The notes: generated by a model from the letters alone, not told the origin. 64,000 nt of DNA from Burkholderiales bacterium (GCA_033764435.1 JANRIX010000010.1:163220-227219), one strand, 5' to 3'. Positions 5,967-35,718 are shown, counted from the stretch's first letter. Numbers and translations: made by a program.

Positions 5967-6311
5967 GACGAGACATGGCGCACCTCAGCGGGTCGGCAAA
6001 GCGACGAGTGTCTGCCGCAGAGGCCAGCCGCTCAAGCGCGATTCGATGAAGCGGTGAAATCGCGGCGTGAAATGCAGGGCGGTCCTGCCGCGCCTGCCGA
6101 GCGATACAGAGCGTCACAAATCGGCACATTCGATACCAAATGCCGCTCAATTTTGCGCTGCGCTACGCGCGCGCGGCCATCGCCGCGCATGGCGACAAAC
6201 CGTTCGTCGCCTGATACAAAATTTCCGGCTTTCCCTATCAAGCATGGTGGGGACAAGCGCCTTCAGCCCTGCTAACGTCGAGAAGTTCCCGCCCAGGATG
6301 AAGGAGGCCCC

Positions 6312-8459
6312 ATGCCGTCACGCCAAGTCAACCTCACCCATGCCGGACTTCGCACGCTGGACGCCCGGCCAGACCGCCTCGATCTGCGCGACCGCCCGTA
6401 TCTGCCCCCGGTGCGATCGCTGCCGCATCGCTACCCCAGCGACGCCAATCTCCGGAAACTCCTTCCCGATTACCTGAAGAAAAAGATGGTGCTCGATCAG
6501 GGCCAGGAAGGCGCATGCACCGGCTTTGGTCTCGCGGCCGCCATCAACTTCATGCTCTGGTACAGGCATGTCGAAACCAAAGGTCGCTACCCCTACAAGC
6601 GGGTCAGCCCGTACATGCTCTACGACCTCGCGCGCTTCTACGACGAATGGCCGGGCGAGGACTACGACGGCTCCAGCTGCCGCGGCGCCATGAAGGGCTG
6701 GCACAAACATGGCGTCTGCGAATATTCGCACTGGACCAGCTCGGTGAAGCCCGGCGGAACCTCGGGAAAATCATCGAAGCCGTACAAACCCAATACCGGT
6801 TGGGCATTCGATGCGGCCAACTGTCCGGTCGGCATCTACTACCGGGTCAATCGCGAGTCTGTCACCGACATCCAGGCCGCCATCAACGAAATGGGCGCGG
6901 TCTACGTCGCGGCCACCGTCCACGCCGGCTGGGACAGCGTCAAGCTGGCGAATGCCCGCCTGAAAAGCCACGACGACATCCCGGTCATTCCGTGGACGAA
7001 GGACTATCAAGCCACTGGCGGTCACGCGTTTGCGCTGATGGGCTTCAACGAATCCGGCTTCGTCGTGCAGAACTCCTGGGGCGACCGATGGGGCAACCAG
7101 GGCTTCGCCGTGATCACCTACGCCGACTGGGTTGCCAACGGCTGCGACGCGTGGGTGTGCTCGCTGGGCGTGCCACAGGTCAAGCCCGGGTCGGCTGCCA
7201 ACGCGGCAACGGTGTCGCGCGTGCGCCAATTGAATTCGTCGGCTGTCACGCCGGCTGCGGCGCTCGCCTCGACAGCGCCTTCTGCCGCCGAGCCGTGGGA
7301 CGTGGACACCGCCTACGCGCACACGCTGGTCGCCGGCAACAACGGCGTCGTCCGCCACAACACCCCTGATATCGGCAGCGCAGCCGCCCAGGTCGAGAAG
7401 ATCCTCGTCGATGCGCCGCTGGCCTGGGCCAGGGAAACAAAGCTTGCCAAGTCCGGCAAGCCACTCAAGCTGATGCTCTACGCGCATGGCGGCCTCAATT
7501 CGGAAGACAGCTCGGTGAAGCGCATTCGCAAGCTGGGACCGTACTTCCTCGCCAACGGCGTGTACCCCGTGTTCTACACCTGGCGCACCGGGTTCATGGA
7601 AGTTGTGAAAAGCGCTCTCGGCGACGCATTTGCCCCGAGTGAAGCGCCCGCGTCGGGCAAGCTGGCCGACGCCAAGGACGCGCTGATTGAGGCGATCTGC
7701 CACGGCACGCGCGCCATCTGGAACGAAATGACGGAGAACGCCGCGCGCGGCGCCGACGCCGGACACGCGATCGACCTCGCGGCCGAGGCGATCGTCATGC
7801 TCGCCAGCAAAGTCGATCTTGAAGTGCATCTCGTTGGCCACTCCGCCGGATCGTTCGTCCACGGCCACCTCATGGACGCGCTCGCCAAGCGCAAGCTGCC
7901 GGTGCACTCGCTGACCCTCTACGCCCCCGCCTGCTCACTCGACTTTGCCAATGAACACTTCGTCCCGGCGGTGCAGAAGAAGCGGCTGGCCAAGGACGCG
8001 TTCTGGCTGCACGTCCTTTCCGACAAGCGCGAGCGTGCGGATTTCGTGGGGCCCGGCACGACCCGGGTCTACGGCAAATCCCTGCTCTATCTCGTCAGCC
8101 GAGGGTTCGAGAGCACGCGCAAGACGCCACTCGCGGGGCTTGAACACTGCCTCGATACGCGCGCCGACAACCCCGACGATGATCTGTGGACAAAGGCGCT
8201 CTACGAGAAGGATGTGCTGGCGTGGCGGAAGTTCGTTGCCACGCTGCCCGCGCAGGCGGATGGCAGGGCGGCGGTGGAGGTCACGGATGCCGATGTCGTC
8301 ACTGAGAAACTGAACGCCGACGGGACCATGTCGACCACCAAGGCCTCGCACGGCTCGTTCGACAACGATGTCGATGTTGTCACGCGCACGATCAATCGCG
8401 TGCTGGGGGTGGCCCCCGGCGCGAAGTTGGCGGTGCCGGTCGTGGATTTGAAGTATTGA
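6312..8459 (+). CDS. fusion protein: N-terminal papain-like (C1) cysteine peptidase domain + C-terminal alpha/beta-hydrolase domain
   Basis: RBS aaggagg before ATG 6312. C1 motifs: QGQEGACTGFGLAAAINF (Gln/Cys), GGHAFALMGF (His), VVQNSWGDRWGNQGF (Asn-Ser-Trp). Hydrolase motifs: LMLYAHGGLN (oxyanion HGG), LVGHSAGSFV (GxSxG nucleophile), C-terminal SHGSFDND. Confidence 0.8.
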   Translation: MPSRQVNLTHAGLRTLDARPDRLDLRDRPYLPPVRSLPHRYPSDANLRKLLPDYLKKKMVLDQGQEGACTGFGLAAAINFMLWYRHVETKGRYPYKRVSPYMLYDLARFYDEWPGEDYDGSSCRGAMKGWHKHGVCEYSHWTSSVKPGGTSGKSSKPYKPNTGWAFDAANCPVGIYYRVNRESVTDIQAAINEMGAVYVAATVHAGWDSVKLANARLKSHDDIPVIPWTKDYQATGGHAFALMGFNESGFVVQNSWGDRWGNQGFAVITYADWVANGCDAWVCSLGVPQVKPGSAANAATVSRVRQLNSSAVTPAAALASTAPSAAEPWDVDTAYAHTLVAGNNGVVRHNTPDIGSAAAQVEKILVDAPLAWARETKLAKSGKPLKLMLYAHGGLNSEDSSVKRIRKLGPYFLANGVYPVFYTWRTGFMEVVKSALGDAFAPSEAPASGKLADAKDALIEAICHGTRAIWNEMTENAARGADAGHAIDLAAEAIVMLASKVDLEVHLVGHSAGSFVHGHLMDALAKRKLPVHSLTLYAPACSLDFANEHFVPAVQKKRLAKDAFWLHVLSDKRERADFVGPGTTRVYGKSLLYLVSRGFESTRKTPLAGLEHCLDTRADNPDDDLWTKALYEKDVLAWRKFVATLPAQADGRAAVEVTDADVVTEKLNADGTMSTTKASHGSFDNDVDVVTRTINRVLGVAPGAKLAVPVVDLKY
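6718..6729. repeat. GCGAATATTCGC palindrome copy (perfect)
   Basis: 12/12, extended TGCGAATATTCGCA; in the C1 peptidase domain, reads CEYSH (frame checked). Confidence 0.95.
8139..8459. repeat. direct repeat copy A (3' end of the peptidase/hydrolase gene), paralogous to 14676-14993
   Basis: Encodes LEHCLDTRADNPDDDLW...AWRKFVATLPAQADGRAAVEVTDADVV...SHGSFDNDVDVVTRTINRVLGVAPGAKLAVPVVDLKY. About 70% aa identity to the downstream remnant. Confidence 0.75.
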
Positions 8460-8469
8460 TCGAGCGCAC

Positions 8470-9921
8470 ATGAACCACCCGGACACAACGCCAAAGGAGC
8501 GATTGGAAAAGGAAAAGCTCAGGCTTGAGATTGCCCGCCTTTATGGCCTGTCCAGTATCGAAACTGAGAAAGCCAAGACTGATCTGAAAATTGCATCGGA
8601 CTCATTCAGGCGTCAGATCACGATCGCCGTGGTCGGACTGCTGATTCCGGCGCTTTCACTCGTTTGGTCTGTGCACTCTTACACCGAGTCCCAACGGGCA
8701 CGATCCAGCGAAGCCGACTCAAGGGCAAAGGCCGAGCGTGAGGCCTCCCTTGAGAAGTCCAAGAGTGAACTGGCCATTCGCGAGCGCCAAATGTTGATCC
8801 AAGCGCTGGGCCTACTTTCGAAACCAGATGCGGCAGAAAGAATTGCGGGTGCGGTGGCGCTCTCCGCGGCCGTCACGCCAGGCAGCCCGGAAGCGAAAAT
8901 TGCCACAGGCGCACTCCTCGCCCGACTTGCGCACGAAACAGACATTCCCGTGATCGAGGCAGTCTCCAGATCAGTGGCAAATTTCGGGGTTTCAGCCGCA
9001 CCAGAAATTGTCTCGCTGAACCAGCGCTCTGCCTACTCAGTTGCAACAAGCGTCGCAGACTGGTCCGCAGTATCCGATCGGAGATTGACTGAACGGGAAC
9101 GAAAGGCAATCCACAAGTCGGAGGAGAGCGAAAGGGCTTGGCTTTGGAGTCACGTTGGTGCCGTACTTGAGCGATCAGGACTCCCTATGCAGCCGGATCT
9201 CGAAGGCATCAATAAGTCCAGCTCGATCGCGGAGCTCAACATCCTCGGATCGAAGAAGTTCTGGGCTGTCTACACAGACAGAAGAGAGTCACTGCTGAAG
9301 CGACAAGGCGCAGGTTCGGCGCCAGAACCTGAAGGAGAGCTGGCGCCGAATCACCGTCGACACATTGCCTTGATCGAATCTCAAATCAGCCGGCATGCTC
9401 GAACTCTGGCCGGCACAAGCCTCGCATTGGTTCAAATACTTCGCACATCAAGCCCGGAGGCCATTCAAAAGCTGGACCTGAGTGGCATTTCTCTCACCCG
9501 CGGCAACCTCGATGGCACGAACCTCATGCGTGCAAGACTGAAGAGTGCACTCGTCTACGCAAGCCTCAGAAACGCAAATCTCAGCGGGGCCGTGTTGAGC
9601 AACGCACACATAGAGGGGCCAATGGGGAGAGCCGACTTCAGAACGGCAAACTTGGAGGGCGCGCAGATCAGAGGCATTGGCCTGCTGCAGGTGCTCTTTT
9701 TCGGCCGAAGCTGCAAGGCGAGCGCCGACAGACGGTCACGGTTTCCGATCATGGATGAGAATGGACGCAAATTGCTACTGGATCACATTACCGGGGGCAT
9801 AAGTGCCGATGGATTCAAACTCCTTGGCAATCAAGAAAAACAAACTGTCACTGCGGATAGCTTCAAGCAGAATGTCGCTCGCTTGCTGGTTGATTGCCTG
9901 GCGCCTGAAGTGATCCCATGA
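8470..9921 (+). CDS. pentapeptide-repeat protein with N-terminal coiled-coil/TM anchor
   Basis: One TM helix (ITIAVVGLLIPALSLVWSV). C-terminal pentapeptide repeats (LSGISLTRGNLDGTNLMRARLKSALVYASLRNANLSGAVLSNAHIEG...ADFRTANLEGAQIRG). Starts 11 nt after the upstream stop. Confidence 0.7.
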   Translation: MNHPDTTPKERLEKEKLRLEIARLYGLSSIETEKAKTDLKIASDSFRRQITIAVVGLLIPALSLVWSVHSYTESQRARSSEADSRAKAEREASLEKSKSELAIRERQMLIQALGLLSKPDAAERIAGAVALSAAVTPGSPEAKIATGALLARLAHETDIPVIEAVSRSVANFGVSAAPEIVSLNQRSAYSVATSVADWSAVSDRRLTERERKAIHKSEESERAWLWSHVGAVLERSGLPMQPDLEGINKSSSIAELNILGSKKFWAVYTDRRESLLKRQGAGSAPEPEGELAPNHRRHIALIESQISRHARTLAGTSLALVQILRTSSPEAIQKLDLSGISLTRGNLDGTNLMRARLKSALVYASLRNANLSGAVLSNAHIEGPMGRADFRTANLEGAQIRGIGLLQVLFFGRSCKASADRRSRFPIMDENGRKLLLDHITGGISADGFKLLGNQEKQTVTADSFKQNVARLLVDCLAPEVIP

Positions 9922-9971
9922 AATTCGGGATCAGTCGTTGCCCGAATTGAATTTTCCGGAGCCACATAATC

Positions 9972-10907
9972 ATGCCACCCACCCGCATCGCCTTCACCTC
10001 CTGCGCCCGCATCGAGGACTTCCCTTCCCAGCCGCAGTGGAAGGAGATCCAGGATGCCGAACCGCACTACCTCCTCCTGCTGGGCGATCAGATCTACATG
10101 GACTACGGATTCAGCAGCGAGCCGAACGGTTCGCCTGCCGACTATCCGCTGGACAAGTTTCGGGACACGATGGCGGCAAAGTACGCGCGCCAGTGGTCGG
10201 AGACACATTTCAAGGACCTGCTTGAATACATGCGCGCCGAGGAGTCTCCAGACAAACCGCGAATATTCGGCACCTGGGACGACCATGACTTCGGCTGGAA
10301 CAATGCCTTCGGCCTGCAGCCGAAAATGACGCCCGACAAATACCAGGCCACGCTCGACCTCTTCCATCAATGGATGAATTGCTCGACCAACCGGCCGCAT
10401 GTGTACTGTCACGCGGACATCGGCGACTTGGCCCGGCTCATCATCCTCGATCAGCGCAGTCACGCTGAGCCCGCAAGCCCGACCAAGCCGACGGCGTCGT
10501 TGCTGGGCGCGGACCAATGGGCGTTTCTGCGGGACAAGCTCAACCACGACAAGCAATACACCCTACTCTGCGGCGGGCTCAGCCTCACCCGCGGCAAGGA
10601 CAACTGGGAGGAGTACCAAGACGAGTACCAGCAACTGCGCGATCTCATCGAGGATCGCGAAGGCGTGATCTATCTGGGCGGCGACATCCACAGCAACAAA
10701 TTCATGAAGCCCGGCGATGACCGGCCGTGCTACGAGATCATCTCATCCGGGCTGGCCGTCAACCTGCTCGCGCTGACGTCGCTGGGCATTGACGATCGCC
10801 ATAACTGGAGCTATCTCGACCTCTCCGAAGAGGGTGTAAAGGTGGTGCAATCCACGTCGGGAAAGCTCAAGCGGCACGCAATCCGATTTGACAATTGGTG
10901 GGGCTGA
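9972..10907 (+). CDS. PhoD-like / calcineurin-like metallophosphatase
   Basis: Metallophosphoesterase signature blocks ARIAFTSC, LLLGDQIYMDYG, WDDHDFGWNN, LGGDIHSNKF. Confidence 0.75.
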   Translation: MPPTRIAFTSCARIEDFPSQPQWKEIQDAEPHYLLLLGDQIYMDYGFSSEPNGSPADYPLDKFRDTMAAKYARQWSETHFKDLLEYMRAEESPDKPRIFGTWDDHDFGWNNAFGLQPKMTPDKYQATLDLFHQWMNCSTNRPHVYCHADIGDLARLIILDQRSHAEPASPTKPTASLLGADQWAFLRDKLNHDKQYTLLCGGLSLTRGKDNWEEYQDEYQQLRDLIEDREGVIYLGGDIHSNKFMKPGDDRPCYEIISSGLAVNLLALTSLGIDDRHNWSYLDLSEEGVKVVQSTSGKLKRHAIRFDNWWG

Positions 10908-10969
10908 CCTCGGCTACACATCAGGGGACTTTGCAGGGGATTGCTTGCAATCCGGAAAGGGGGCGAACG

Positions 10970-13306
10970 ATGAGTACCAAGCGGAAATCACGAGTGGCAT
11001 CCTCCAGAGCGCCAAAGGAAGAGATTGAGCTGTCGATCTGCGCCTTTGGTGTCGACCCTTTGACGATCACCCTGCCCGATCCGTCTTCGGACATGCAGTC
11101 GGTGAACATCAAGCAGCTCATCCTCAACTCGACTGCGGAACTCTGGACATACACGCTTCAGAACCGGATGCGCTGGCAAAGCGAAGATGGCATCTCGTCG
11201 AAGCTGACTCGGAAGGCCCGGGGCGCATTCGAAGAACTGGGAATCGCCCCGAGCGAGTGGTCCAAGCTGGCCTCCAGCAAGATCGCCCAGATTTCAATCC
11301 CCGTTGATCGGCTTGGCCAGAACGCGCTTCGACTCATGCCGTGGGAGTTCTTCATCGCCTCCGCGCTGGCCGCTGATCCACGAGTGCCCATCGTCCGCAA
11401 AGCTGTATTCACTCAGTCCGCAAAGCCTGCAACTCCAGAGCGCACCAACAAGACCATTCTCTTTATCCAGAGCGCGCCAGGCCGGTTGGGCACAGCGTAC
11501 GACTTTGATTCAGAGAAAAAGCTGGTCAGGTCAACGTTCAGCGACGCCACTGTCAAGATTCTGGAAAACCCTGACATCGCCGAGATCCGCAGGTGCGTTG
11601 TAGATCTGGATCCCGAGGTGATTCACTTCGCTGGCTTCGATTATCGGCAGGCGATGGCAGAGCTGTCGGCTGACGCCGCGGGCGAGTACCCCTCCGCGAT
11701 CCCGCGAGTGGGTGCGTGGCCAGAGGACTCGTTTGACGGCGTCGTTCTTGGTGACCCCGCTCAAGGTGTCGTCGCGCACCATTCCGCCGAGTTTGCCGAC
11801 GCCCTGTGTGCCGGCAAGCGGGGGCCGGTCATGGTTTGCCTCGCGTGCTGGCATGGCGCGACCGCGCTCGCGCCCGAGCTAGTGCTGGCCGGCGCGCGGA
11901 GTTGCTTCTGCTTTCAGGACATTCTGGATGATGAGTTCGCCGAGACGATCCTGTCGTCCTTCTACCGCTTCTGGCGCGACGAGAACTGGAAGCTCGGCCC
12001 CGCCTTCACCAACACACTTCGCCACTTGTGGAAGCAGCCCGGCGGCGTGCGCGGCACCGGCATCGTTCTTCTCACCACCGACGAGCTTGTCGCCCGGAAC
12101 ACACCGGAAACCGAGCCGCAGAAAACAGAGGCAGCTCCCCCGCTCAGGGGGAAGAAGTTGGCAGACGCGAACCTCCCGGCGTTGATCGGCTTCGACATTC
12201 GCCCGCACAACGAGCTCAACTACGCGATGCTCCATAACGCGCAGCCACTGTTCAAGAGCTTCCGCATCATTCGCCTGTCCGACGCAGAGTTCGAGGACTT
12301 GGAAATCACGGTCGACCTTTGCACAGGACCGGAAGGCAAGGCGTTCCGACGCACGACAGCATTGCGCGTTCAAACGCTTGATCTCACGCGTGAGATCGTC
12401 ATCCCCCTCAATGCGACCCTCTCCCGCCAGATCCGCGAAGCAGTGTCCAGCAGCCTGTTCGTCGAGATCGCCTGTGGCGGCAGAATCCTTCACCGAGAGA
12501 CCCATCGAGTCCGCCTGCTGCCAGCGGATCAATGGAAAGACAGCGCCAAGGACAGCCGCTGGCTGCCCAGCTTTGTGCTCCCGCGCGACCCGGCCGTCAC
12601 CCACGTCATCCGGGACGCGCACAAGTACGTCAAAGTCCTGCGCGATGATCCCGACGCCGGATTCGAGGGCTATCAGGTCTACTCCAGCATCGACGACGAG
12701 AGTGAGCACAGCGAGGACGAACAGATCGCCCTGGATCTGCAAGTTCAAGCCATCTGGGCCGCGATCGCACACGAATGCCGGTTGGTCTACATCAATCCGC
12801 CGCCCACCTACAGCGATGGCTTCGACTCACAGCGGCTGCGCACACCCAGCACGACAGTCAATGGTCAGATGGGCACCTGCATTGACCTCGCGCTCCTGTT
12901 TGCCGCCTGCCTGGAGTTCGTGGACATCTACCCCGTCATCTTCCTGCTGGATGGTCACGCACTTCCCGGCTATTGGCGCAGCGAGACCGCACACAGCCGA
13001 TTCGTCTGCATCGACAACCCCGGCGACGCGGCTGTCCGCCAGAGTCGAAGCAGTGCCCTCGCCGGTGGGTCGAAACTTGGGGACGGCTGGGTCTTTGACG
13101 AATCGATTTATGAGGAAATCAGAAAGGAAATCGAAATCGGCAATCTGGTGCCCGTCGAATCGACCCGACTGACCCAGGTCTCGTCATTCGCGCAGGCCGT
13201 CGAGCTCGGCACGCGCGCCCTGGCTTCCGCATCGGGCTTTCAATGCATGCTCGACATCCATATCGCGCGGCAATTGAACGTAACGCCGCTGCCCATACAG
13301 GAGTAA
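10970..13306 (+). CDS. CHAT (caspase-like) domain + C-terminal transglutaminase-like cysteine-protease domain protein
   Basis: RBS aaaggggg before ATG 10970 (M26 of ORF 10895). CHAT-like block VIHFAGFDY...VMVCLACWHGATALAPELVLAGARSCFCFQDILDDEFAETILSSFYRFW. C-terminal transglutaminase-core-like block GTCIDLALLFAACLEFVDIYPVIFLLDGHALPGYW (Cys..His..Asp). Confidence 0.65.
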   Translation: MSTKRKSRVASSRAPKEEIELSICAFGVDPLTITLPDPSSDMQSVNIKQLILNSTAELWTYTLQNRMRWQSEDGISSKLTRKARGAFEELGIAPSEWSKLASSKIAQISIPVDRLGQNALRLMPWEFFIASALAADPRVPIVRKAVFTQSAKPATPERTNKTILFIQSAPGRLGTAYDFDSEKKLVRSTFSDATVKILENPDIAEIRRCVVDLDPEVIHFAGFDYRQAMAELSADAAGEYPSAIPRVGAWPEDSFDGVVLGDPAQGVVAHHSAEFADALCAGKRGPVMVCLACWHGATALAPELVLAGARSCFCFQDILDDEFAETILSSFYRFWRDENWKLGPAFTNTLRHLWKQPGGVRGTGIVLLTTDELVARNTPETEPQKTEAAPPLRGKKLADANLPALIGFDIRPHNELNYAMLHNAQPLFKSFRIIRLSDAEFEDLEITVDLCTGPEGKAFRRTTALRVQTLDLTREIVIPLNATLSRQIREAVSSSLFVEIACGGRILHRETHRVRLLPADQWKDSAKDSRWLPSFVLPRDPAVTHVIRDAHKYVKVLRDDPDAGFEGYQVYSSIDDESEHSEDEQIALDLQVQAIWAAIAHECRLVYINPPPTYSDGFDSQRLRTPSTTVNGQMGTCIDLALLFAACLEFVDIYPVIFLLDGHALPGYWRSETAHSRFVCIDNPGDAAVRQSRSSALAGGSKLGDGWVFDESIYEEIRKEIEIGNLVPVESTRLTQVSSFAQAVELGTRALASASGFQCMLDIHIARQLNVTPLPIQE

Positions 13307-13310
13307 GGCC

Positions 13311-14660
13311 ATGAGCACGTTTAGCGCAGAAAACCGCAAGGATGTGGGCGAATGCATCAAGTCTTCCATCTCCTCCATGGAGAGCCTTTTTTCGGCGGAG
13401 CACATGGAAGCCTCGGAGCGGATGACCGGCCGCCGACGCAGCGGTGCGACGCTGCGACAGCAGCCGCGCCTGCAGCTGGTGGATGTCGACGGCGTGTTGC
13501 GCTGGCGATACCGGGATGTCGAGGCCGGACCGAGCGGGAGACGTTCGCTCCGCGCCATCGCTGCCACGGCCATGGGAGATGTCGTGGTCGACCTCCCCTT
13601 GAAGCCGTTGAACCGCAATCAAGTGCTGGCTGCGATGCAAAGCCTCGATGATTCCCTCACGCCCTCGCGCGGGCTGCGAGTGATTCACGAGGGTCAACTG
13701 GTCAAGGCACCGGAGATCGAGCACCCGGCAAAGGTTCTGCTCTTCATACACGGCACCTTCAGCAAGGGCGAGGCCCTCTACGACGAACTCAAGTCCACCG
13801 AGGACGGCCACAAGTTCCTGCATTGGGCGCATGAGCACTATGATCACGTGCTCTTCTTCGATCATCCCACGCTCGCCGTCAGCCCCATACTGAATGCCGT
13901 CGAGCTCAGCACACTTCTGGCGGGCCGCTGCAGCAGCATCGACATCATCGCCCACAGCCGCGGCGGCATCGTCGCCGCGTGGGCCGCCAAAGGCATGAAA
14001 CTGCCCCTCGGCATCGTGTGTACGCTGGGTAGTCCGCTCGATGGCACCAGCCTGGCCAGCCCCTACCGCCTGCGCGACACGCTGGACTACTTCGCCAACG
14101 TTGCCGCCGCTTGCAAGCTCGCCACCGGCGCACTCGGCGCTGTACCGTTTGCAGGTCCGCTGTTCGCAGCGACGGCCGGACTCATGTCTGTATTGCAAAC
14201 CGTCCTCTACGCCTCTGCCAAGACACCGCTCATCGACGCGGGCATTGCGATCGTGCCCGGCCTTGCAGCGCAATCACGTGTCGACAACAATCCGGAGCGG
14301 ATAGCGTTGCAGGATGACCGTACGGCGGCCCACGTATCCGGGACTTTCATCGGTGTCACCGCAAACTTCAGCCCGCAGCATATCGACGAGCCGATTTGGC
14401 AATTCTGGAAGCGGTGGCAGAGGCTGCCGTGGTCAGTGGCCAACAAGGTCACGGATGCCATCTTCGAGTCGGCCAACGATCTTGTCGTCGACTGCGACTC
14501 TGCAAAGAAATTCTGCGGCGCACCCGCAGCCGCCACGCAGATCTTCGACTTTGGTGACACCCATCTCGTGCATCACTGCAACTACCTGACGCAAAGCAGA
14601 ACGCTCGACTTCGTGAAGACGCATTTGACCGACCGGCATGCCGCAGCCGGGAGAACGTAA
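13311..14660 (+). CDS. alpha/beta-hydrolase (lipase/esterase-like) protein
   Basis: LLFIHGTFSKGEALY (oxyanion region) and IIAHSRGGIVAAW (GxSxG-type nucleophile elbow). Stop TAA 14658-14660 is in frame with the downstream remnant. Confidence 0.7.
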   Translation: MSTFSAENRKDVGECIKSSISSMESLFSAEHMEASERMTGRRRSGATLRQQPRLQLVDVDGVLRWRYRDVEAGPSGRRSLRAIAATAMGDVVVDLPLKPLNRNQVLAAMQSLDDSLTPSRGLRVIHEGQLVKAPEIEHPAKVLLFIHGTFSKGEALYDELKSTEDGHKFLHWAHEHYDHVLFFDHPTLAVSPILNAVELSTLLAGRCSSIDIIAHSRGGIVAAWAAKGMKLPLGIVCTLGSPLDGTSLASPYRLRDTLDYFANVAAACKLATGALGAVPFAGPLFAATAGLMSVLQTVLYASAKTPLIDAGIAIVPGLAAQSRVDNNPERIALQDDRTAAHVSGTFIGVTANFSPQHIDEPIWQFWKRWQRLPWSVANKVTDAIFESANDLVVDCDSAKKFCGAPAAATQIFDFGDTHLVHHCNYLTQSRTLDFVKTHLTDRHAAAGRT

Positions 14661-14675
14661 CGCAAGGTCGGCCGC

Positions 14676-14993
14676 CTCGCCCACTGCCTCGACCCGAAAG
14701 CGGACAACCACGACGACGACCTCTGGACACCACGCGAATATTCGCAAGTGGTCGCGTGGCGCGATTTCGTCCGCGCGCTGCCCGCGCAGGCCGACGGCCG
14801 CGACGCCGCGGAAGTCGTCACCATCGACGTCGTCCCCGCCAAGCTCGGCGCGGACGGCAGCGTGGTCACCATCGAGTCCACCCACGGCTCGTTCGACAAC
14901 GACCTCGAAACCATTTCGCGGACGATCAACCGGGTGTTAGGCAAGGTGCCGTCGGCGCCGCTGGAGGTGGGGGTGACGGATTTGAAGTATTGA
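14676..14993. repeat. direct repeat copy B (paralog of 8139-8459)
   Basis: See copy A. Contains a perfect GCGAATATTCGC copy that the upstream copy lacks. Confidence 0.75.
14734..14745. repeat. GCGAATATTCGC palindrome copy (perfect)
   Basis: 12/12; within the gene remnant, reads EYS. Confidence 0.95.
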
Positions 14994-15012
14994 GTAAGGG
15001 GTGGCAGAGAGT

Positions 15013-15024
15013 GCGAATATTCGC
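15013..15024. repeat. GCGAATATTCGC palindrome copy (perfect)
   Basis: 12/12, extended TGCGAATATTCGCA; intergenic. Confidence 0.95.
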
Positions 15025-15078
15025 AAGCGCCAGCGCGTCGGCGGCGACGGTTACGTAACGGAATGTCATGATTCTGCA

Positions 15079-15090
15079 GCGAATATTCGC
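15079..15090. repeat. GCGAATATTCGC palindrome copy (perfect)
   Basis: 12/12; intergenic. Confidence 0.95.
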
Positions 15091-15159
15091 AATTGGCAGC
15101 ATCAAACCGCCTCACAGCGCAATTCGCTGCCGGCGTCACAAAAAGCCACCAGAAAACAC

Positions 15160-15192
15160 CAGAACCCTACAAAGGTTGATGGGGTTTCTTCT
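15160..15192 (+). terminator. terminator-like hairpin + T-tract (member of the ccctaY..tgggg hairpin family)
   Basis: aaccctacaaaggttgatggggtttcttctc; related to the hairpins at 3343 and 6233. Confidence 0.35.
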
Positions 15193-15590
15193 CGCCAGCT
15201 TAGACATACTGTCTCGTAACGTTGCCTTCATCGATGCCCTGCGCAAGAATGACCCGTAAATGATTGACATCGTCCTGGACGACTTTGCCAATGCGCTGGC
15301 CGAACTGCTGACGACGAACGAGATGTCGATAACGCCCGATACACAATCAATCGCCGACGACGGCGAGCCGACTTGACCAGCGACGCAATGTGACTCGATC
15401 AATCCAAAGCCGAGCAAATGCGCATCACTCTCAGAACGAGGATGAAGAACCAGCTCGTCCAGGCTGTCGTGAAGGGGCGAGGGATGAGATGACAGAGGAA
15501 GAGGAGCGGCATGCGGGGCATGAAGACGTTAGGTCAAGAGCGGCGATTGTGATCGCCAAACCATAGTCCTACAAGGCATTTGACGGTATC

Positions 15591-16595
15591 TTGGCATTGC
15601 ATAGCCCAATGCCGCGCTCATTGAACCGACCGAAAGAAATCAAGGTCGTTGCAGGAAAGGGGAAATACTTGTTTAACTCGCAGATTGGTCCACTAGACGG
15701 CCCTTCCTGGGAGGCGCTGTGCCAAGAGGCCCTCAAGAGACGGCACCATTCCGAGGGATACCAAGAAATGAAAGCGTCCCCCGGCGACTATGGGATTGAT
15801 GGCTTCACACTGGATTCTGGACTTGCCTTTCAGTGCTATTGCCCGGAAAAACACTACTCTCGGCCAGAGCTGTATGAAAAGCAGAGAGACAAAATCACAG
15901 AAGACGTAGGGAAGCTACGGACGCATCAGAAGCCAATTCTCGACAGAGTTGGGAGCAATAAGTTCTCGAAATGGATATTCCTTACCCCTGAGTATGACAA
16001 GAATGATCTTCTCGCCCACGCAAGAAGCAAAGAAGTAGAAGTTCGAAGCTGGAACCTACCATTCCTAACTTCGGATTTTCAGATAGTAATAAGGGATGCC
16101 TCTGACTACAGAACTGAAATCAATGAGATCCGCGTCCTCAGTCTGGAGCCCCTCTACTTTGAGGATGAAGTCCCGACCCTAAAAACGATTCAGGGCGAGA
16201 AGGAAGAGCACGAAAAAAACATCGAGAGGAAGTCCAAGGCCCGACTTGCAGGGGCCGAACAAAGCCCTCGCTATTCAACTCGACTGGAGCAACTGCGTCA
16301 GAAGACTCTGGAGAGTTTTTTTGAGTACGAAGATTTCTTTCGAAAAATTAGTGACGACGCGCCGTTGATTTACGTCAGGCTAGTTCGACTAATAAATGAG
16401 TATGAAGAGATGGTGGTCGAGTCCTCCACCACATGGTCGGGAACAGCACAGGACCTAACTGAAAAAATTCGTGATGACCTAGCTTCTAGGATTTCTCAAG
16501 AGCTTGCGCCACAGATATCAGCGGCCACTGCAATGAAGATAGCCAGAATAATGACTGCGCGATGGATAGCTGTTTGCGAGTTGGACTATGGATAG
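15591..16595 (+). CDS. Lamassu/ABC-3C-like system, putative effector subunit (LmuA-like)
   Basis: 334-aa ORF in a ~45% GC block, first of three translationally coupled genes (overlaps 16588/17046). Weak PD-(D/E)xK-like pattern (GDYGIDGF...QCYCPEK). Assignment rests on position and architecture. Confidence 0.4.
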   Translation: MALHSPMPRSLNRPKEIKVVAGKGKYLFNSQIGPLDGPSWEALCQEALKRRHHSEGYQEMKASPGDYGIDGFTLDSGLAFQCYCPEKHYSRPELYEKQRDKITEDVGKLRTHQKPILDRVGSNKFSKWIFLTPEYDKNDLLAHARSKEVEVRSWNLPFLTSDFQIVIRDASDYRTEINEIRVLSLEPLYFEDEVPTLKTIQGEKEEHEKNIERKSKARLAGAEQSPRYSTRLEQLRQKTLESFFEYEDFFRKISDDAPLIYVRLVRLINEYEEMVVESSTTWSGTAQDLTEKIRDDLASRISQELAPQISAATAMKIARIMTARWIAVCELDYG

Positions 16596-17049
16596 CCCAA
16601 TCGTCGAACTTGTATTCCGGCGCCAGCCATCGGCGGTGATTCCAGAACACAGACCACTTTACAAGATCTCTCAGCTTGCGCTGATCCTAAATGTCTCATC
16701 CCGCGCTGGACGATCTAAAGTTTCGCGATTGCACTTATTGAACTGGGCGCTAAAGAAGAGATCGCGACAACTGTTGCTAGAACGTGCTGCTGAAAGCGGC
16801 ACACTTAGGATTCAAGCTTGGGGCTTCGATCCCATTCTTGCATTTGCAATTCGCTTTGCACTCGCTGACGGCATTGTTGCAGATACGTCGACCGGTTATG
16901 AGCTCACGGAGAAAGGAAGATCCTTTGCCATGGCCATTCTGAAAGATCCCACTTTGTTGGCGAGCGACAAAGTTTTTCTAGAAAGAATCGGAAAAGGCAT
17001 TACGGAAACAATGGTGGATGCTGTGGCAAATGACTGGGACATTAGATGA
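16588..17049 (+). CDS. Lamassu/ABC-3C-like system, small middle component (LmuC-like)
   Basis: 153-aa ORF overlapping both neighbours by 8 and 4 nt; no catalytic motifs. Confidence 0.4.
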   Translation: MDSPIVELVFRRQPSAVIPEHRPLYKISQLALILNVSSRAGRSKVSRLHLLNWALKKRSRQLLLERAAESGTLRIQAWGFDPILAFAIRFALADGIVADTSTGYELTEKGRSFAMAILKDPTLLASDKVFLERIGKGITETMVDAVANDWDIR

Positions 17050-19091
17050 AGATAAATGCGATTCGGGTCAAGATTTCGGCAACCGAAGGTGACTTTGGAT
17101 TTAATTTCCAGTTTGGTAAGAATCTGACAATCATTAGAGCCAACAACACAAGCGGTAAGAGCACTCTAATCAACTGCTTGCTATACGGCCTGGGCATGGA
17201 AGAGCTGATTGGGGGCAAGGGGGAAAGGACGCTCTCGTCCGCGGTCAAAGACGCGTTCGATCACGGCCAAAAGAAGATTCAGGTTCTTAGCTCTGAAGTA
17301 TGGCTTGAGATTGAAAACTCTCAAGGTGCAATAGTCACACTTCGGAGAGCCATCAAAGATAAATCCCGCGACTCAAAGCTAATCGAGATTTATCCCGTCG
17401 CATTTCTGACAGAGGGCGAAACGCCAATCACCTCAACTCCAACATATTTGCACGATCCCGGAAGCGCCAAGAACCAAGGGGGCTTCTATCATTACTTGGA
17501 ACAGTTCCTCCAACTCTCACTGCCGAGAGTACCCACAGTTTCTGGCTCCGAAACGAAGCTCTACATTCAATGCGTTTACACAGCTTGTGCTGTAGAACAA
17601 AAAAGAGGTTGGACTGACTACCTAGCAAACATGCCATTTTTTGGTATCAGAGATGCGAGAACCAGGGTTGTTGAATACATTTTGGGACTCGATGTATTTG
17701 AAACAAATTCTGAGAGAAATAGACTCAACCAAGAGTCAATTGAGATCGATAAGGACTGGAGATCATTGGTTGAGCAAATGAATTCGAAGGGGCTTCGAAT
17801 CGGCGCAAAGTTAGTCAACCTTCCAGCTACGCCGACAGTGTCGTTCGATCCCAATCTCGTGGCGTATGTCTTCCCACAGGGCCAAGCGACCATCACATTG
17901 TCAGAGCATCTCTCGGCGCTTCGATCGCGACACGCAAGTCTCGAGGCTCAAAGAGATCGATTCCGCTCGAACGCCAGCCAAGAATCCATACAAGCAGTCG
18001 ACTCCACAACAGAGGAGTTGAGCCAGCTGAATCTTTTTCACGGCCGCTCTCTTGCTTATGTCGAGCAACTAAAGATTTCACTCTCTCAGTATGGCGAGCA
18101 ACTGGAGGAGACAAACGAAGATCTGTCTAGGAATAAAACTGCCGGGAAGCTACAAGAGCTAGGTGCAAAATTCGAATTCAGCACCAGCTCCAACATCTGC
18201 CCAACTTGCGATCAACCGATCAATGAATCTCTGATACCAAAGGCAATCTCAGGACCGCAAATGGATCTTGCGTCGAACATTCGATATCTCGACAGTCAGA
18301 GGAAGATGCTCGAACGGCAGATTCTTGGAATACAACAGAGCTTAGCTGATGCCGAATCGAACACGAAGGCGTTTGAAGCTCAGATTCGGACCAAGACGCA
18401 GTTTCTTGCCAACCTAAGGGGAGACATTTCAACTGGAGCTGCAGAGTCTCGGGCTGTTGCCCGAGAGCAAGCCCAAATTGAACTTGAAATAGAAGCATTG
18501 GAGAGATTGGTTTCGGATCTCGCCCCGTCCTTAAATCGGATAAACGCACTAGCCCTGAAACTAAGAGAAAACCAAGCATTTCGCAACACTCTTCCTAAGT
18601 CGATCTACACGGAATCTGACGAAAGCAAGATTCGAATTTTTGAGAAGCAGTTTCGAGCAAATGCCGGCTCCTTTGGATACGAAAGCGCTCCAATCAATGA
18701 GATTGGCATTTCCTTTGAGAAACTTACTCCGAGTTGGGCAGACATCGAATTGCGCGAAGTGATTGACCGAGACATTCAAGCGGAATCAAGTGCCAGCGAT
18801 TTTATAAGATTGATCTGGAGCTACTTACTAGCACTTCACCAGACTTCGGCGCTGAGCGCGGTTGACGGTCGACATCTCGGCCAGCTAATTCTCGACGAGC
18901 CTGGACAGCACTCAATGGCTGCCCCGAGCCAGCACGCCCTACTTAAGCAATTAGCCGCTGAGAAAGAGCTTCAAAGCATTGTGTCAGCCTCGTTTGATGA
19001 GACCGAGGAGGTATTCCTGAAGGCAACCGCAGGCATTGCGTTTGAATTAATTCGCTGGGAGGGAAAGCTGATTCAACCACTCGATGCGTAA
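17046..19091 (+). CDS. SMC/Rad50-like ABC ATPase with coiled-coil and CxxC zinc-hook (LmuB-like)
   Basis: Walker A IIRANNTSGKST at the N-terminus. Long coiled-coil with ICPTCDQPINESLIP (CxxC hook) at its centre. C-terminal Walker B QLILDEPGQH. Confidence 0.7.
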   Translation: MKINAIRVKISATEGDFGFNFQFGKNLTIIRANNTSGKSTLINCLLYGLGMEELIGGKGERTLSSAVKDAFDHGQKKIQVLSSEVWLEIENSQGAIVTLRRAIKDKSRDSKLIEIYPVAFLTEGETPITSTPTYLHDPGSAKNQGGFYHYLEQFLQLSLPRVPTVSGSETKLYIQCVYTACAVEQKRGWTDYLANMPFFGIRDARTRVVEYILGLDVFETNSERNRLNQESIEIDKDWRSLVEQMNSKGLRIGAKLVNLPATPTVSFDPNLVAYVFPQGQATITLSEHLSALRSRHASLEAQRDRFRSNASQESIQAVDSTTEELSQLNLFHGRSLAYVEQLKISLSQYGEQLEETNEDLSRNKTAGKLQELGAKFEFSTSSNICPTCDQPINESLIPKAISGPQMDLASNIRYLDSQRKMLERQILGIQQSLADAESNTKAFEAQIRTKTQFLANLRGDISTGAAESRAVAREQAQIELEIEALERLVSDLAPSLNRINALALKLRENQAFRNTLPKSIYTESDESKIRIFEKQFRANAGSFGYESAPINEIGISFEKLTPSWADIELREVIDRDIQAESSASDFIRLIWSYLLALHQTSALSAVDGRHLGQLILDEPGQHSMAAPSQHALLKQLAAEKELQSIVSASFDETEEVFLKATAGIAFELIRWEGKLIQPLDA

Positions 19092-19097
19092 TTGCCT

Positions 19098-19826
19098 ATG
19101 CCGGTTTTTCGAGTAATTCTTGCTTCTCAACTCCGCCTCCTAACCTTCCGCGAATTCAAACCCAACCTGCGCGACCACTGGCGCGCGTATCTGGGCTGGG
19201 GGATGTTCTGGACGTGGGTGGCGGGCATGGGCCGGTATTGGGACAACCCCAAAGCCGAGTGGTGGCAGGCGCTGGGCCTGGGCTCGATCGCGTACATCTT
19301 CACGCTGGCGCTGGTGCTGTGGCTGATCATCCTACCGCTCAAGCCGAAAAACTGGACCTATCGCAACATCCTTATCTTCCTCTCGCTGACCTCGCTGCCG
19401 GCGGTGCTGTACGCGATCCCGGTGGAGCGCTTCATGCCGCTCGCCCAAGCGCAGGCGGCGAATGCGTGGTTCCTCGGCATCGTGGCGACGTGGCGGGTGC
19501 TGCTCTTGTGGTTCTTCATCCGCCGCGTGGCGCGGCTCTCCTGGCTGGACACGCTGGTGGCGTGCCTGCTGCCGCTCACGCTGATCGTCGTCGCGCTGAC
19601 GGCGCTGAACCTGGAGCACGTGGTGTTCAACATCATGGCGGGCAACACGCCTGAGCAGCAGTCCGGCAATGATCGGGCCTACGGGATTCTGTTTGTGATC
19701 ACGTTCTTTTCCATGATGCTCTCGCCGATTTTGGTGCTGGTCTATTTCGCGCGGGCAGGCATTCGGCTGCGGGAGGTGCGGGCGGAGCGGGATGCAGAAG
19801 AGGCTGGCCGACGCACGGGACAATAA
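19098..19826 (+). CDS. multi-pass membrane protein (6 predicted TM helices), hypothetical
   Basis: ATG 19098 lies 7 nt after the ATPase stop. GC returns to ~62%. Highly hydrophobic 243-aa product. Confidence 0.55.
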   Translation: MPVFRVILASQLRLLTFREFKPNLRDHWRAYLGWGMFWTWVAGMGRYWDNPKAEWWQALGLGSIAYIFTLALVLWLIILPLKPKNWTYRNILIFLSLTSLPAVLYAIPVERFMPLAQAQAANAWFLGIVATWRVLLLWFFIRRVARLSWLDTLVACLLPLTLIVVALTALNLEHVVFNIMAGNTPEQQSGNDRAYGILFVITFFSMMLSPILVLVYFARAGIRLREVRAERDAEEAGRRTGQ

Positions 19827-19884
19827 AGATGCGGTGAATTCATCATTGGTCTGAGAGTCGAAAGGCAGGCCAACCTTCCATGGG

Positions 19885-20724
19885 GTGACCAGATTGGGAT
19901 ATCAACGATGCAGCTTTGGGCTATTCGCAGGCGGATTGTTGGCCTCACTCTTTGTCGCAGCGCAAGAGTGCAGGCCGATTGAGAACCTGGAGAAGGTGGC
20001 TGACAAGAGATTGATCTTTGTTGGCGAGCTTCACGGCACAAAAGAATCCCCGCAATTCGTTTCCGACCTGACGTGCGGTTTGCTGCACATGAAGAAGCAG
20101 GTTGTTCTTGCAGTTGAGATGTCGAGTGACTTTCAGCCAGATTTGCAGTCAGCTATCAACGCGCCATCGGAACAGCAAGCTCTTGCCGAACTGGAGAAGC
20201 TTCGCTTTTGGGATGCGACGATGCAGGACGGGAAGCGCAGCTTGGCCTACATGAAACTGTTGAGGACGGCTTGGAGCTGGAAGCGGCAATTCCCTGACTT
20301 CGATGTTGCGGCAATCGATCTCTCGGGGTCCAGTTTCCCGTCTGCCAGAGCTGAGTTCATGGCAGGTGAGATCAGAAAGATTCTGAATCGCGACAGGCAG
20401 GTGGTGGTTGTCGCTTTTACTGGAAACATTCATGCTCGCAGACAGAAGGGAACACCCTGGAACAAGGCGTTTGTCCCAGCCGCCTCTCTGCTCAACGATG
20501 TTGAAATGGTCTCGCTGAATATGGACTACACGGCAGGGACAGCTTGGAACTGCGGGGGGCGCGGCTGCGGCATCAATCCAGTTTCCGACTTGCCAGTGAC
20601 TGGCAAGTCAACGAAGCCAAGCATTCAGATCAGTCAAGCGGACCCCTACTACGACGGCGTTTATCAACTCGGTGAAGTATCCGCCTCACCGCCTGTTCGA
20701 CAATCCCCAACAGCGAGTAAGTGA
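19885..20724 (+). CDS. hypothetical secreted protein (possible TraB/Tiki/ChaN-like fold)
   Basis: N-terminal signal (FGLFAGGLLASLFVAAQ); LIFVGELHGTKESPQF block; ~50% GC. Confidence 0.5.
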   Translation: MTRLGYQRCSFGLFAGGLLASLFVAAQECRPIENLEKVADKRLIFVGELHGTKESPQFVSDLTCGLLHMKKQVVLAVEMSSDFQPDLQSAINAPSEQQALAELEKLRFWDATMQDGKRSLAYMKLLRTAWSWKRQFPDFDVAAIDLSGSSFPSARAEFMAGEIRKILNRDRQVVVVAFTGNIHARRQKGTPWNKAFVPAASLLNDVEMVSLNMDYTAGTAWNCGGRGCGINPVSDLPVTGKSTKPSIQISQADPYYDGVYQLGEVSASPPVRQSPTASK

Positions 20725-20788
20725 GCTTGTCAGTTGGGCGTTTATTCAATTAGGGCGGGCTTAATCGTTTCGGCTGGTTTCGTGCACT

Positions 20789-20982
20789 CCGAATATTCGC
20801 AGTGCACGTTTGAGACGAACTTGGGCCCCGGCCCGTCATTCCCGCGAAGGCGGGAACGGGGCGACGGGGATGCGATTGCCATTGCGACTAAGTGGAGTCC
20901 GGGTGACTTCGATTGGACGCTGCAGGCGGTCCCGCAGGGATTCAGCAGTCGCCCCAAGCGACTGGTTAACAATATTCGCACT
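20789..20982. repeat. composite repeat element bounded by degenerate GCGAATATTCGC-like ends and containing a REP-like hairpin (20839-20856 ttcccgcgaaggcgggaa)
   Basis: Left end ccgaatattcgcagtgca (11/12); right end aacaatattcgcactgca (9/12); internal hairpin shared with the elements at 22283 and 33284. Confidence 0.5.
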
Positions 20983-21032
20983 GCAAGCGGGGCGCTGAAT
21001 CCCGGCTACGACATCGCAAGATCTTCGGCTCC

Positions 21033-21066
21033 AAAAAAATCGGCCGGCCCACTCAGTGGCCGGCCG
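21033..21066 (-). terminator. rho-independent terminator (minus strand)
   Basis: 8-bp GC stem ggccggcc/ggccggcc with loop cactcagt, followed on the minus strand by T7; lies just downstream of the small ORF 21140-21268. Confidence 0.5.
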
Positions 21067-21139
21067 CAATTCCCGTGTATCTGCTGCGGTGCTGCGGTTG
21101 CTGCGGTGCTTCCAAGTGATGGGGTGGCGGTGCGGGCGG

Positions 21140-21268
21140 TCAGGCGAGCACCGGAATGCTGGCGAGCGCGATGCCCGCGACGGCGATGATGACCGCGATG
21201 GCGGTCAGGATGATGCGGCGAACCGGGCCGGGGCGCGGTCGCTCGGGTGTGGCGCTGACGACGTACAT
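21140..21268 (-). CDS. small hydrophobic peptide (42 aa), hypothetical
   Basis: MYVVSATPERPRPGPVRRIILTAIAVIIAVAGIALASIPVLA with RBS aggaaagg and the terminator above; below ORF-track size cutoff. Confidence 0.3.
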   Translation of the reverse strand: MYVVSATPERPRPGPVRRIILTAIAVIIAVAGIALASIPVLA

Positions 21269-21530
21269 GAATGCCTTTCCTCGTGGTGACTGCGCTTGTT
21301 GCGATGATTACGTAGAGCCGCAACAGGCGCAGGCGAATCCTTGCAGATTTCATACGATTTGAAACCTACCAACCTTGATAGGTTTGGCGGATTTTTTCGA
21401 TGTTTCGACAGATAACCACGCAAATCCCGCATCGCGGGCGAGGGTTTGCGGAAGAATTGTGCCGGGCGTTGGTTACACTTTCGTTGTTCTGGCATTCGTT
21501 CAGCTTGCACGGTGCTTGCACTCGGGCCCG

Positions 21531-21580
21531 TTCATGCTTCGACACCTCAGCACGAACGGGAAGGGGGTTGGGGTGAATGC
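21531..21580. repeat. intergenic repeat family 2 (cttcgaYacctcagSacgaacggg), copy 1
   Basis: ~85% identical over ~40 bp to 31291-31340. Confidence 0.4.
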
Positions 21581-21670
21581 CTGGAATGCCTGGTTCGTTT
21601 CGCGCCGGCATGCATGCTTTTCTCATCAGCAAAAAATACAGCTGGCGCACTCGCGCCACATCCATACATC

Positions 21671-22198: not shown

Positions 22199-22249
22199 CG
22201 GAGTCGCCCTTTTTTAAGAAAGGGAGAAGTGCACAGGTCATCCTAGTTT

Positions 22250-22396
22250 GCAAATATTCGCACTGCCTACACAAATTGCTCCGTCGTTCCCGCGCAGGCG
22301 GGAACCTAAGTTGGTGGGAACAACTTGCTGAACTTGGGTTCCCGCCTGCGCGGGAACGACGAAGTCGGAGGCGGTTTCGCGGCTGCGAATATTCGC
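22250..22396. repeat. palindromic REP/MITE-like element (core 22283-22361) flanked by GCGAATATTCGC copies
   Basis: Left arm cgtcgttcccgcgcaggcgggaacctaagtt and right arm aacttgggttcccgcctgcgcgggaacgacg are reverse complements (1 mismatch). Each arm is itself a hairpin. Flanked by gcaaatattcgc (22250, 11/12) and gcgaatattcgc (22385). Confidence 0.6.
22385..22396. repeat. GCGAATATTCGC palindrome copy (perfect)
   Basis: 12/12, extended TGCGAATATTCGCA; intergenic, right end of the REP-like element. Confidence 0.95.
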
Positions 22397-35712: not shown

Positions 35713-35718
35713 GATGAA

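Follow-up and report, generated by a model that had tools for sequence, protein, structure and literature searches.

Scarcity of a clade-specific 12-bp palindrome over a probable mosaic of acquired segments in an uncultured Burkholderiales lineage

In Synechococcus elongatus PCC 7942, scarcity of the highly iterated palindrome HIP1 (GCGATCGC) has been taken to signal foreign DNA that was acquired recently, although some native genes lack it too (PMC3025956). Foreign genes of cyanobacteria have been detected by oligomer frequencies as well (PMC3497702). In Neisseriaceae, the atypical distribution of DNA uptake sequences (DUS) was used to find integrative conjugative elements (PMC7371117), and regions poor in the uptake sequences of Neisseriaceae and Pasteurellaceae were used to find mobile elements (PMC7371117; PMC7811141). 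Here we consider the 12-bp palindrome GCGAATATTCGC in a stretch of 64,000 nucleotides from a Burkholderiales bacterium (GCA_033764435.1 JANRIX010000010.1:163220-227219), below called the window. The region 6730-20788 of the window is a desert, almost devoid of the palindrome. We read it as a mosaic of at least three separately acquired pieces in a hotspot of variable genes, with the palindrome marking residence and the new DNA lacking it; we put the probability of this reading at roughly three in four. The finding is a new instance of a known principle, that motif scarcity reflects recent acquisition, and extends it to a further clade and a further motif.

The window contains 31 perfect and eight one-mismatch copies of the palindrome (39 in total), against 0.22 expected from shuffled sequences; a frequent longer form is TGCGAATATTCGCA. 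About 24 of the 31 copies are in coding DNA, where all three frames are used (A-N-I-R, x-E-Y-S-x and R-I-F-A). The motif occurs in all nine clade genomes sampled, with 0.3-1.5 copies per kb in the relatives, whereas none of 79 loci from less closely related Burkholderiales and other taxa has it. Within this sample it is clade-specific, with about one copy per 2 kb.

Like HIP1, GCGAATATTCGC is a hyper-abundant short palindrome located mostly within genes, whose low copy number is read as foreign origin, and the same caveat about native genes applies to both. Mutation in place is thought to generate HIP1 and was seen at one site for GCGAATATTCGC. Unlike HIP1, the present motif has 12 bp with an AT core (AATATT), belongs to a betaproteobacterial clade of 64% GC and occurs about once per 2 kb; its depletion rests on replicated cassettes at one hotspot and is not genome-wide in scope. 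DUS copies are conserved at orthologous positions. The two are similar also in being clade-specific 10-12-mers that occur about once per kb in coding DNA, and the Neisseriaceae, too, are Betaproteobacteria. However, DUS and the uptake signal sequences (USS) are not palindromes, and the host of the present motif is uncultured. A literature search for the GCGAATATTCGC string returned nothing relevant, and no paper was found in it that describes the motif in an island-marking role.

The locus was compared with those of other uncultured Burkholderiales, namely the nearest genome, MAG-159 (GCA_016791265.1, locus L081; its TolB-amidohydrolase protein is 90% identical to that of the window), and the loci L085, L086, L087, L089, L090, L092 and L093/L094. 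MAG-159, L092, L093 and L094 share the anchor genes with the window, but not the segments 8460-14667, 15540-19127 and 19798-21030. A first-pass annotation, made from the sequence of the window, had interpreted the desert as a mosaic of horizontally acquired DNA. The mosaic is upheld by synteny in the relatives, by orthology of a gene remnant and by composition, whereas the proposed boundaries of the first block, the argument from spacing and the proving power ascribed to the motif are not. In the comparison with relatives that the annotation had suggested, MAG-159 has neither 8460-14667 nor the Lamassu cassette described below, and carries an intact peptidase gene; L092 has an empty Lamassu site.

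The simplest reading of the first piece is a block of about 8.4 kb (about 6250-14667), consisting of one peptidase allele and four further genes, that would have overwritten the resident peptidase gene except for its last ~330 bp. Its entry may have been a recombination event that used homology at the left edge and ended in an illegitimate join at the right one. The second piece would be a 3.6-kb Lamassu cassette of 48% GC, placed between a small open reading frame (ORF) and a gene for a Yip1-like membrane protein, and the third a segment of ~1.2 kb with a ChaN-like gene. Between the first two pieces, ~870 bp of resident DNA would survive: the peptidase remnant, a terminator-like spacer, and the remnant of a patatin gene with the small ORF. 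All three motif copies that interrupt the desert lie in the remnant and the spacer of this resident DNA.

The remnant with its downstream spacer is 94.7% identical on the DNA level to L085 (2249-2606), 83.4% to L087, 83.0% to L086 and 74.2% to MAG-159. The identity of the remnant to the intact copy 6.5 kb upstream (8145-8459) is about 74%. On the protein level, 103 of 105 amino acids match the C-terminus of protein P0008, and 65 of 105 match the adjacent intact copy. The three interrupting motif copies are orthologous to copies at 2315, 2593 and 2715 of L085; two of them (14734 and 15013) are orthologous also to copies at 11853 and 12127 of MAG-159, and the one at 15079 corresponds to 5155 of L094. 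The remnant and the spacer (14668-15198) are, on this orthology, resident DNA, and the earlier placement of the three copies in original host sequence is borne out. The copy at 14734 has orthologs in the peptidase genes of MAG-159, L085, L086 and L087. The position equivalent to 8200 of the window carries the motif in every relative, but the intact peptidase gene of the window reads TCTACGAGAAGG there.

The intact peptidase gene has 73.6-78.4% DNA identity to its clade relatives (MAG-159, 78.4%; L089, 77.7%; L085, 73.6%), and its protein is 100% identical to P0001, a protein of a metagenome-assembled genome at NCBI. The genes upstream of it are closest to L087 and L086 (81-83%), with MAG-159 lower (76%). 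A change of nearest relative falls near 6250-6300, where the intergenic DNA aligns poorly. Because the order of its nearest relatives is unlike that of the flanks and of the remnant, the intact gene is phylogenetically incongruent; it is probably a divergent allele brought in by an import whose left edge lies near 6250-6300. The four genes had been described earlier as a repeat-bounded cargo at 8460-14675; the left "repeat" is, on the present reading, the 3' end of the imported allele, and the block contains one motif copy. This copy, at 6718, is orthologous to copies in MAG-159 (L081 10407), L087 (10407) and L085 (845). Conserved as it is in these relatives, it points to DNA of the clade, which need not be resident DNA.

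Directly 3' of the peptidase gene, L090 has an ortholog of the PhoD-like cargo gene (70% identity on the amino acid level, 75.7% on the DNA level), which indicates that some of the cargo moves among members of the motif-bearing clade. Given this ortholog and the motif copy in the imported allele, the donor of the first block was probably another member of the clade. Homology-facilitated illegitimate recombination reportedly occurs in transformable bacteria and is said to have been described in 2002. An anchor on one side and an illegitimate join on the other would leave an imported allele and cargo followed by a resident 3' remnant; for this locus we only infer the mechanism.

Two other interpretations of the block were rejected. 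The DUF7379 ORF at its end and the remnant are not one paralogous gene with a nonsense mutation, as the DUF7379 protein has no similarity to the peptidase and homology starts only near 14668. The two do share a reading frame with a single TAA codon (14658-14660) between them, probably by coincidence or as a by-product of the join. Nor is the intact peptidase gene a chimera that switches allele partway, as no L085/P0008-like segment appears inside it when identity is computed in sliding windows. A degenerate pattern for the motif site at the 3' end of the peptidase gene had no match in metagenome contigs.

The region 8-13 kb is moderately atypical in composition (delta* 89-100, with a background mostly of 30-75), and the tetranucleotide correlation r of the cargo is 0.74-0.86 vs 0.93-0.97 across most of the remaining window. 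The GC content at third codon positions (GC3) of three cargo genes is 0.75-0.81, near native values. The pentapeptide-repeat gene has no counterpart in any compared relative. PADLOC gave no match for any of the four cargo proteins. In the 803-aa protein, the segment similar to NCBIfam NF058533 covers the first 248 of the 1903 positions of this family (E=8e-55), and its score of 186 bits is far below the 1500-bit cutoff; the protein appears to share only a domain with the N-terminal region of ProA. It has no Pfam, PADLOC or PDB sequence match, no scored homolog by word-index search and no relative in a metagenome scan. Literature searches on DUF7379 and ProA gave nothing relevant. The four genes may form an undescribed defence-related module.

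The Lamassu-like nature of the second piece, proposed in the first-pass annotation, is confirmed by PADLOC, which assigns all three genes. Lamassu and DdmABC systems have reportedly been described in studies of 2018 and 2022. The cassette resembles them in its three overlapping genes LmuA-LmuC-LmuB (order A-C-B, overlaps of 8 and 4 bp), the SMC-like LmuB, the low GC content and the occurrence as a mobile cassette. It differs in that no effector domain of LmuA is recognised, as the protein has no Pfam, NCBIfam or PDB sequence match, and in that no close solved structure was found by sequence. LmuB has SMC and Rad50-like NCBIfam matches; its PDB matches to ribosomal protein L6 were discarded as spurious. 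The cassette (~15540-19127) is strongly atypical (delta* 144-170), so the check by k-mer composition suggested earlier singles it out and, to a moderate degree, the region 8-13 kb. A distant-mode DNA search of PLSDB with the Lamassu region gave two weak partial matches (67-68% identity, at most 11% coverage) and no donor.

In the genomes compared here, the interval from the peptidase gene to the Yip1-like gene is a hotspot of variable genes and defence systems. The 60-62 aa small ORF precedes it in relatives. The site between this ORF and the Yip1-like gene is documented in five states: empty, with two unrelated Lamassu systems, with an nSTAND NTPase, and with a KAP NTPase (Table 1). The Yip1-like gene has widespread homologs of ~240 aa; it is native in the window and truncated in MAG-159, where the order is peptidase, DHDPS/GntR/proline racemase/DAO, KAP NTPase and truncated Yip1-like gene. 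In L090, the peptidase gene is followed by PhoD, a RES-Xre toxin-antitoxin pair and a type II restriction-modification system. The genes DHDPS, GntR, proline racemase and DAO of MAG-159 (L081 12309-16395) form a high-GC, motif-bearing cluster of hydroxyproline catabolism that is absent from the 64-kb window. Thus the hotspot would exchange metabolic genes as well.

Defence islands and hotspots with alternative cargo between core genes have reportedly been described in 2011 and 2023. Similarly, the same two anchors flank different defence genes here, and one genome (L092) shows an empty site. Unlike in those systems, no integrase or att site is evident, and exchange seems to proceed via homology of the flanking genes, leaving a remnant of the peptidase 3' end in the window and of the Yip1 5' end in L094. 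As no integrase, att repeat or tRNA is seen, we infer that homology of the flanks mediates the exchange of cassettes at the Yip1 site. The features of a classical genomic island are present in part: the pieces are absent from relatives and atypical in composition, but integrase, repeats and tRNA are not found. In L094, the intact Yip1-like gene is preceded, beside the nSTAND cassette, by two fragments of its 5' end (8789-8898 and 9065-9167), which are 92% and 83-93% identical, respectively, to window 19128-19344. Like the peptidase remnant of the window, they are gene-end remnants, a signature recorded here for cassette exchange without integrase.

The third piece, the segment 19798-21030 (~1.2 kb), is absent from MAG-159, L092, L093 and L094 and is compositionally atypical. 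Its ChaN-like gene had been included in the acquired desert as a gene of ~50% GC. The GC content is about 54%, and the absence of the segment from the four relatives agrees with acquisition.

The perfect-copy gaps of the desert are 6730-14733 and 15091-22384 (7.3 kb). The first, of 8.0 kb, is flanked by the copies at 6718 and 14734, exactly as annotated. The second had been given as 15091-20788 (5.7 kb); no perfect copy occurs there, but the copy at 20789 matches only at 11 of 12 positions, and the gap extends to 22384. A listing of motif copies within 6730-20788 also confirmed that the sole 11/12 copy in this region is at 10259, in the PhoD-like gene. The mean spacing elsewhere is ~1.7 kb (28 copies in 48.3 kb outside the desert), close to the ~1.6 kb of the annotation. 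The third-largest gap of the window is 36269-41762, after a tRNA cluster.

The candidate islands without counterpart in MAG-159, 8460-14667 and 15241-19091 (10.06 kb together), contain none of the 31 copies (binomial P=0.005). Furthermore, four genomes each have a low-GC cassette at the Lamassu site, and these cassettes (14.76 kb in total, GC 0.48-0.51) contain no perfect or 11/12 copies vs 7.8 expected at the clade density of 0.53 per kb (P=3.9e-4). The depletion is significant only once foreign segments are defined independently of the motif. This replicated test, which does not depend on spacing, is the real statistical support for the idea that the palindrome tells older from newer DNA at the locus.

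The copies seem to be made and kept in place. When window copies are aligned to MAG-159 (74-93% identity), 10 of 11 are preserved at all 12 positions vs 28% of random 12-mers (P=2.5e-5). At site 24758, in the TolB-amidohydrolase gene, the clade orthologs compared (L001, L093, L094) read xxG CGA ATA TTC GCA, with rare arginine (CGA) and isoleucine (ATA) codons, whereas more than 35 outgroup orthologs (among L002-L040) encode R-I-x-A as CGC ATC xxC GCC. Comparison of this one site with the outgroups shows, on the aligned sequences, a copy arising in place by point substitution against codon bias; such copies then stay at orthologous sites. The motif at 24758 is built from rare codons in a gene with 85% GC3, which indicates selection or drive on the DNA level overriding codon bias. 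Only if copies form in place and are maintained can the motif report residence time. Motif density would track the residence time of DNA in the clade, newly arrived DNA having none and copies accumulating slowly. The density in the window is 0.65 copies per kb where the DNA is shared with relatives and 0.16 where it is not.

Several results weigh against the mosaic reading or against the role of the motif in it. Firstly, when 31 copies were scattered uniformly in simulations, 44% of the runs had a largest gap of 8016 or more (P=0.44) and 14% had a second-largest gap of 7306 or more (P=0.14); in a second version that preserves the observed clustering into pairs and triplets, the frequencies are 76% and 44%. 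The gap lengths in the window alone fit random placement, and the earlier claim that the spacing put the desert beyond chance is not borne out. The annotation had itself held that common 8-kb gaps would speak against it, and in part this is what was found: in 205 kb of clade DNA, four of the 91 internal gaps are at least 7 kb long. Secondly, DNA of native composition may lack the motif over long distances. This is so for the phn C-P lyase operon of the window (47530-52056; native codon composition, 4.5 kb), for 8.3 kb in L090 and for at least 11.5 kb in L092; the gap in L093 is 9.95 kb. In L092 the last 11.5 kb of the locus (9254-20726) are motif-free at normal GC (0.60-0.64) and include a glmS-like gene, so that long motif-free stretches are not confined to obvious islands. 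Thirdly, the difference between shared and unshared DNA is not seen in MAG-159 (0.56 vs 0.61 copies per kb) and L092 (0.37 vs 0.72), and variable DNA of normal GC carries the motif, with three copies in the patatin region of L092 (7086-10021) and two in the hydroxyproline genes of MAG-159. Fourthly, the cargo alone is weak evidence, having no copies in 6.2 kb vs roughly three expected at the clade-wide density, and a donor from within the clade leaves this motif-free stretch only partly explained. Fifthly, the right junction is located to about 14645-14672, with no clear microhomology in the alignment, and both this and the left breakpoint (6250-6300) are seen only to the level of these regions. 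Finally, no integrase or transposase domain (Pfam, main ORFs of 6312-20724), att-like flanking repeats or flanking tRNA were found at the three pieces, the nearest tRNAs being at about 33 kb and 35.4-36.7 kb, and the source sequence is a contig of a metagenome-assembled genome.

As variable DNA of normal GC carries the motif and native operons may lack it for at least 4.5 kb, the motif is not proof of nativeness. It marks long residence in the gene pool of the clade, not nativeness at a locus, and little can be concluded from its absence unless the stretch is long or other evidence is considered with it. The statement of the first-pass annotation that the palindrome marks native DNA holds in this restricted form: the four low-GC cassettes lack it, but it is present in variable DNA and missing from the phn operon.

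The spacing results and the gaps in relatives and in the phn operon are what would be expected if the desert were a chance fluctuation, its overlap with unusual genes noticed post hoc, and the motif silent on origin. However, chance accounts poorly for the four-cassette result, since those segments were defined independently, and for the fact that the only copies inside the desert fall exactly in the ~870 bp that are resident by orthology. In addition, the motif count is negatively correlated with dinucleotide atypicality (Spearman -0.37, with a P value that is optimistic because the sliding windows overlap). We consider this explanation improbable.

Another possibility is that the cargo is ancestral and was lost by the relatives, with the remnant left by a tandem duplication that copied the 3' end of the peptidase gene long ago, and with the genes motif-free by gene-specific constraints. 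The PhoD-like ortholog in L090 stands at the place expected from this, the GC3 of three cargo genes is near native, and the locus has yielded no mobility genes or att sites. On the other hand, the remnant resembles the L085 allele much more than the copy upstream, which fits replacement; the intact allele is incongruent with its flanks; MAG-159, L085, L089 and L092 carry other genes after the peptidase; and the composition of 8-13 kb is atypical. An ancestral cargo therefore has about as little in its favour as chance. Although the source is a metagenome-assembled genome and the two peptidase alleles resemble different lineages, an assembly artefact, in which the contig joins two co-occurring strains, one contributing the remnant and the other the intact gene, is highly improbable, since the junction near 14660 joins the DUF7379 end to the middle of the peptidase with no shared repeat for an assembler to collapse, a similar gene-end remnant (the Yip1 fragments of L094) occurs in another assembly, and the variation of the hotspot is seen in seven independent assemblies.

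On the mosaic reading, the locus is a worked example from an uncultured lineage, in which a hyper-abundant clade palindrome helps to tell DNA of long residence from recent arrivals. The same locus makes plain how far such a marker reaches: spacing by itself is not diagnostic, accessory DNA of normal GC carries the motif, and the allele of a related donor brings its own copy. The motif itself is probably the more interesting object, being kept at 12 of 12 positions in DNA of 74-93% identity and built from rare codons. One speculative and rather unlikely option is that GCGAATATTCGC is the recognition signal of a process that prefers self-DNA, either a palindromic counterpart of DUS or a HIP1-like element linked to methylation or repair; the 8.4-kb block could then have entered by natural transformation with one-sided homology. 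If this is true, motif density could act as a clock of DNA residence in the clade.

Table 1. Features of the 6-21 kb region of the window, and content of the site between the small ORF and the Yip1-like gene in the window and in relatives.
Feature	Position	Strand	Evidence or remarks
Intact peptidase gene, C1-peptidase-like / alpha-beta-hydrolase-like, 715 aa	6312..8459	+	Pfam Peptidase_C1
Perfect motif copy	6718..6729	.	inside peptidase gene; last before first gap
Cargo gene 1, pentapeptide-repeat protein, 483 aa, GC3 0.60	8470..9921	+	Pfam Pentapeptide E=2e-9
Cargo gene 2, PhoD-like phosphatase, 311 aa	9972..10907	+	Pfam PhoD E=1.6e-15
Cargo gene 3, 803-aa protein	10895..13306	+	residues 442-706 vs NCBIfam NF058533 (anti-phage protein ProA)
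Cargo gene 4, DUF7379 protein, 449 aa	13311..14660	+	Pfam DUF7379 E=6.4e-28; TAA stop 14658-14660
Peptidase remnant, last ~107 codons of the lineage's own allele	14668..14993	+	homology to L085, P0008
Perfect motif copy	14734..14745	.	in peptidase remnant, read R-E-Y-S
Perfect motif copy	15013..15024	.	directly past stop codon of remnant
Perfect motif copy	15079..15090	.	in spacer
Terminator-like spacer element (AACCCTACAAAGGTTGATGGGGTTT)	15146..15198	+	part of resident DNA; shared with L085 2801-2820, L094 5222-5272
Degenerate patatin gene 3' end and 60-62 aa small ORF	15220..15539	+	64% identity to L092 9581-9831, L093 1514-1843
LmuA, 334 aa	15591..16595	+	PADLOC LmuA E=8e-38
LmuC, 153 aa	16588..17049	+	PADLOC LmuC E=9.5e-21
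LmuB, SMC-like ATPase, 681 aa	17046..19091	+	PADLOC LmuB E=4.1e-105, residues 1-671; Pfam AAA_23
Yip1-like membrane protein gene, right hotspot anchor	19128..19826	+	DNA identity L092 92.8% (full gene), L094 90%, L093 87%
ChaN/Tiki-like gene, 279 aa, GC about 54%	19885..20724	+	Pfam Cofac_haem_bdg E=6.4e-11
11/12 motif copy (CCGAATATTCGC)	20789..20800	.	next perfect copy at 22385
L092 site			empty, about 90 bp; patatin and small ORF upstream
Window site			Lamassu (LmuA-LmuC-LmuB)
L093 site			different Lamassu (CTD7/MC3/LmuB_C), no tblastn similarity to that of the window
L094 site			nSTAND NTPase and duplicated Yip1 5' fragments
MAG-159 site			KAP NTPase with PifA-like N-terminus, abutting truncated Yip1-like gene

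Motif copies are frequently paired at distances of 57-150 bp. Nine of the 91 pooled gaps are shorter than 200 bp, and the distribution is over-dispersed relative to Poisson. Examples are 15013/15079, 52057/52205, 56396/56465 and 60567/60662 in the window, 8395/8452 and 9747/9830 in L001, and 7937/8020 in L092. A role of the copies as marks of island boundaries was rejected, as the distances to boundaries are inconsistent across genomes.

The terminator-like element has the form AAAACCCTAC[A/C]AAG..TGGGGTTTTTT and is repeated 3' of different genes in several clade genomes, often beside a motif copy. It is found at 15146-15198 and ~3331-3368 of the window, L085 2801-2826, L087 12391-12428 and L094 5222-5272.

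The tRNA cluster of the window contains ~8-10 genes (32992-33130 and 35451-36703), with an odd call of a 2-nt anticodon at 33057-33130 and a 151-nt Rfam tRNA match at 35722-35872. The ~1.5 kb that follow it (36700-38200) have flat GC over codon positions, no Pfam match and delta* of 114-121, and may be another small island. Finally, a GC-rich palindromic element similar to repetitive extragenic palindromes, CGTCATTCCCGCGAAGGCGGGAAC, occurs singly at 20834-20857 and as an inverted pair at 22279-22312 and 22331-22364 (94% complementary); pieces of it match L089 and L093.

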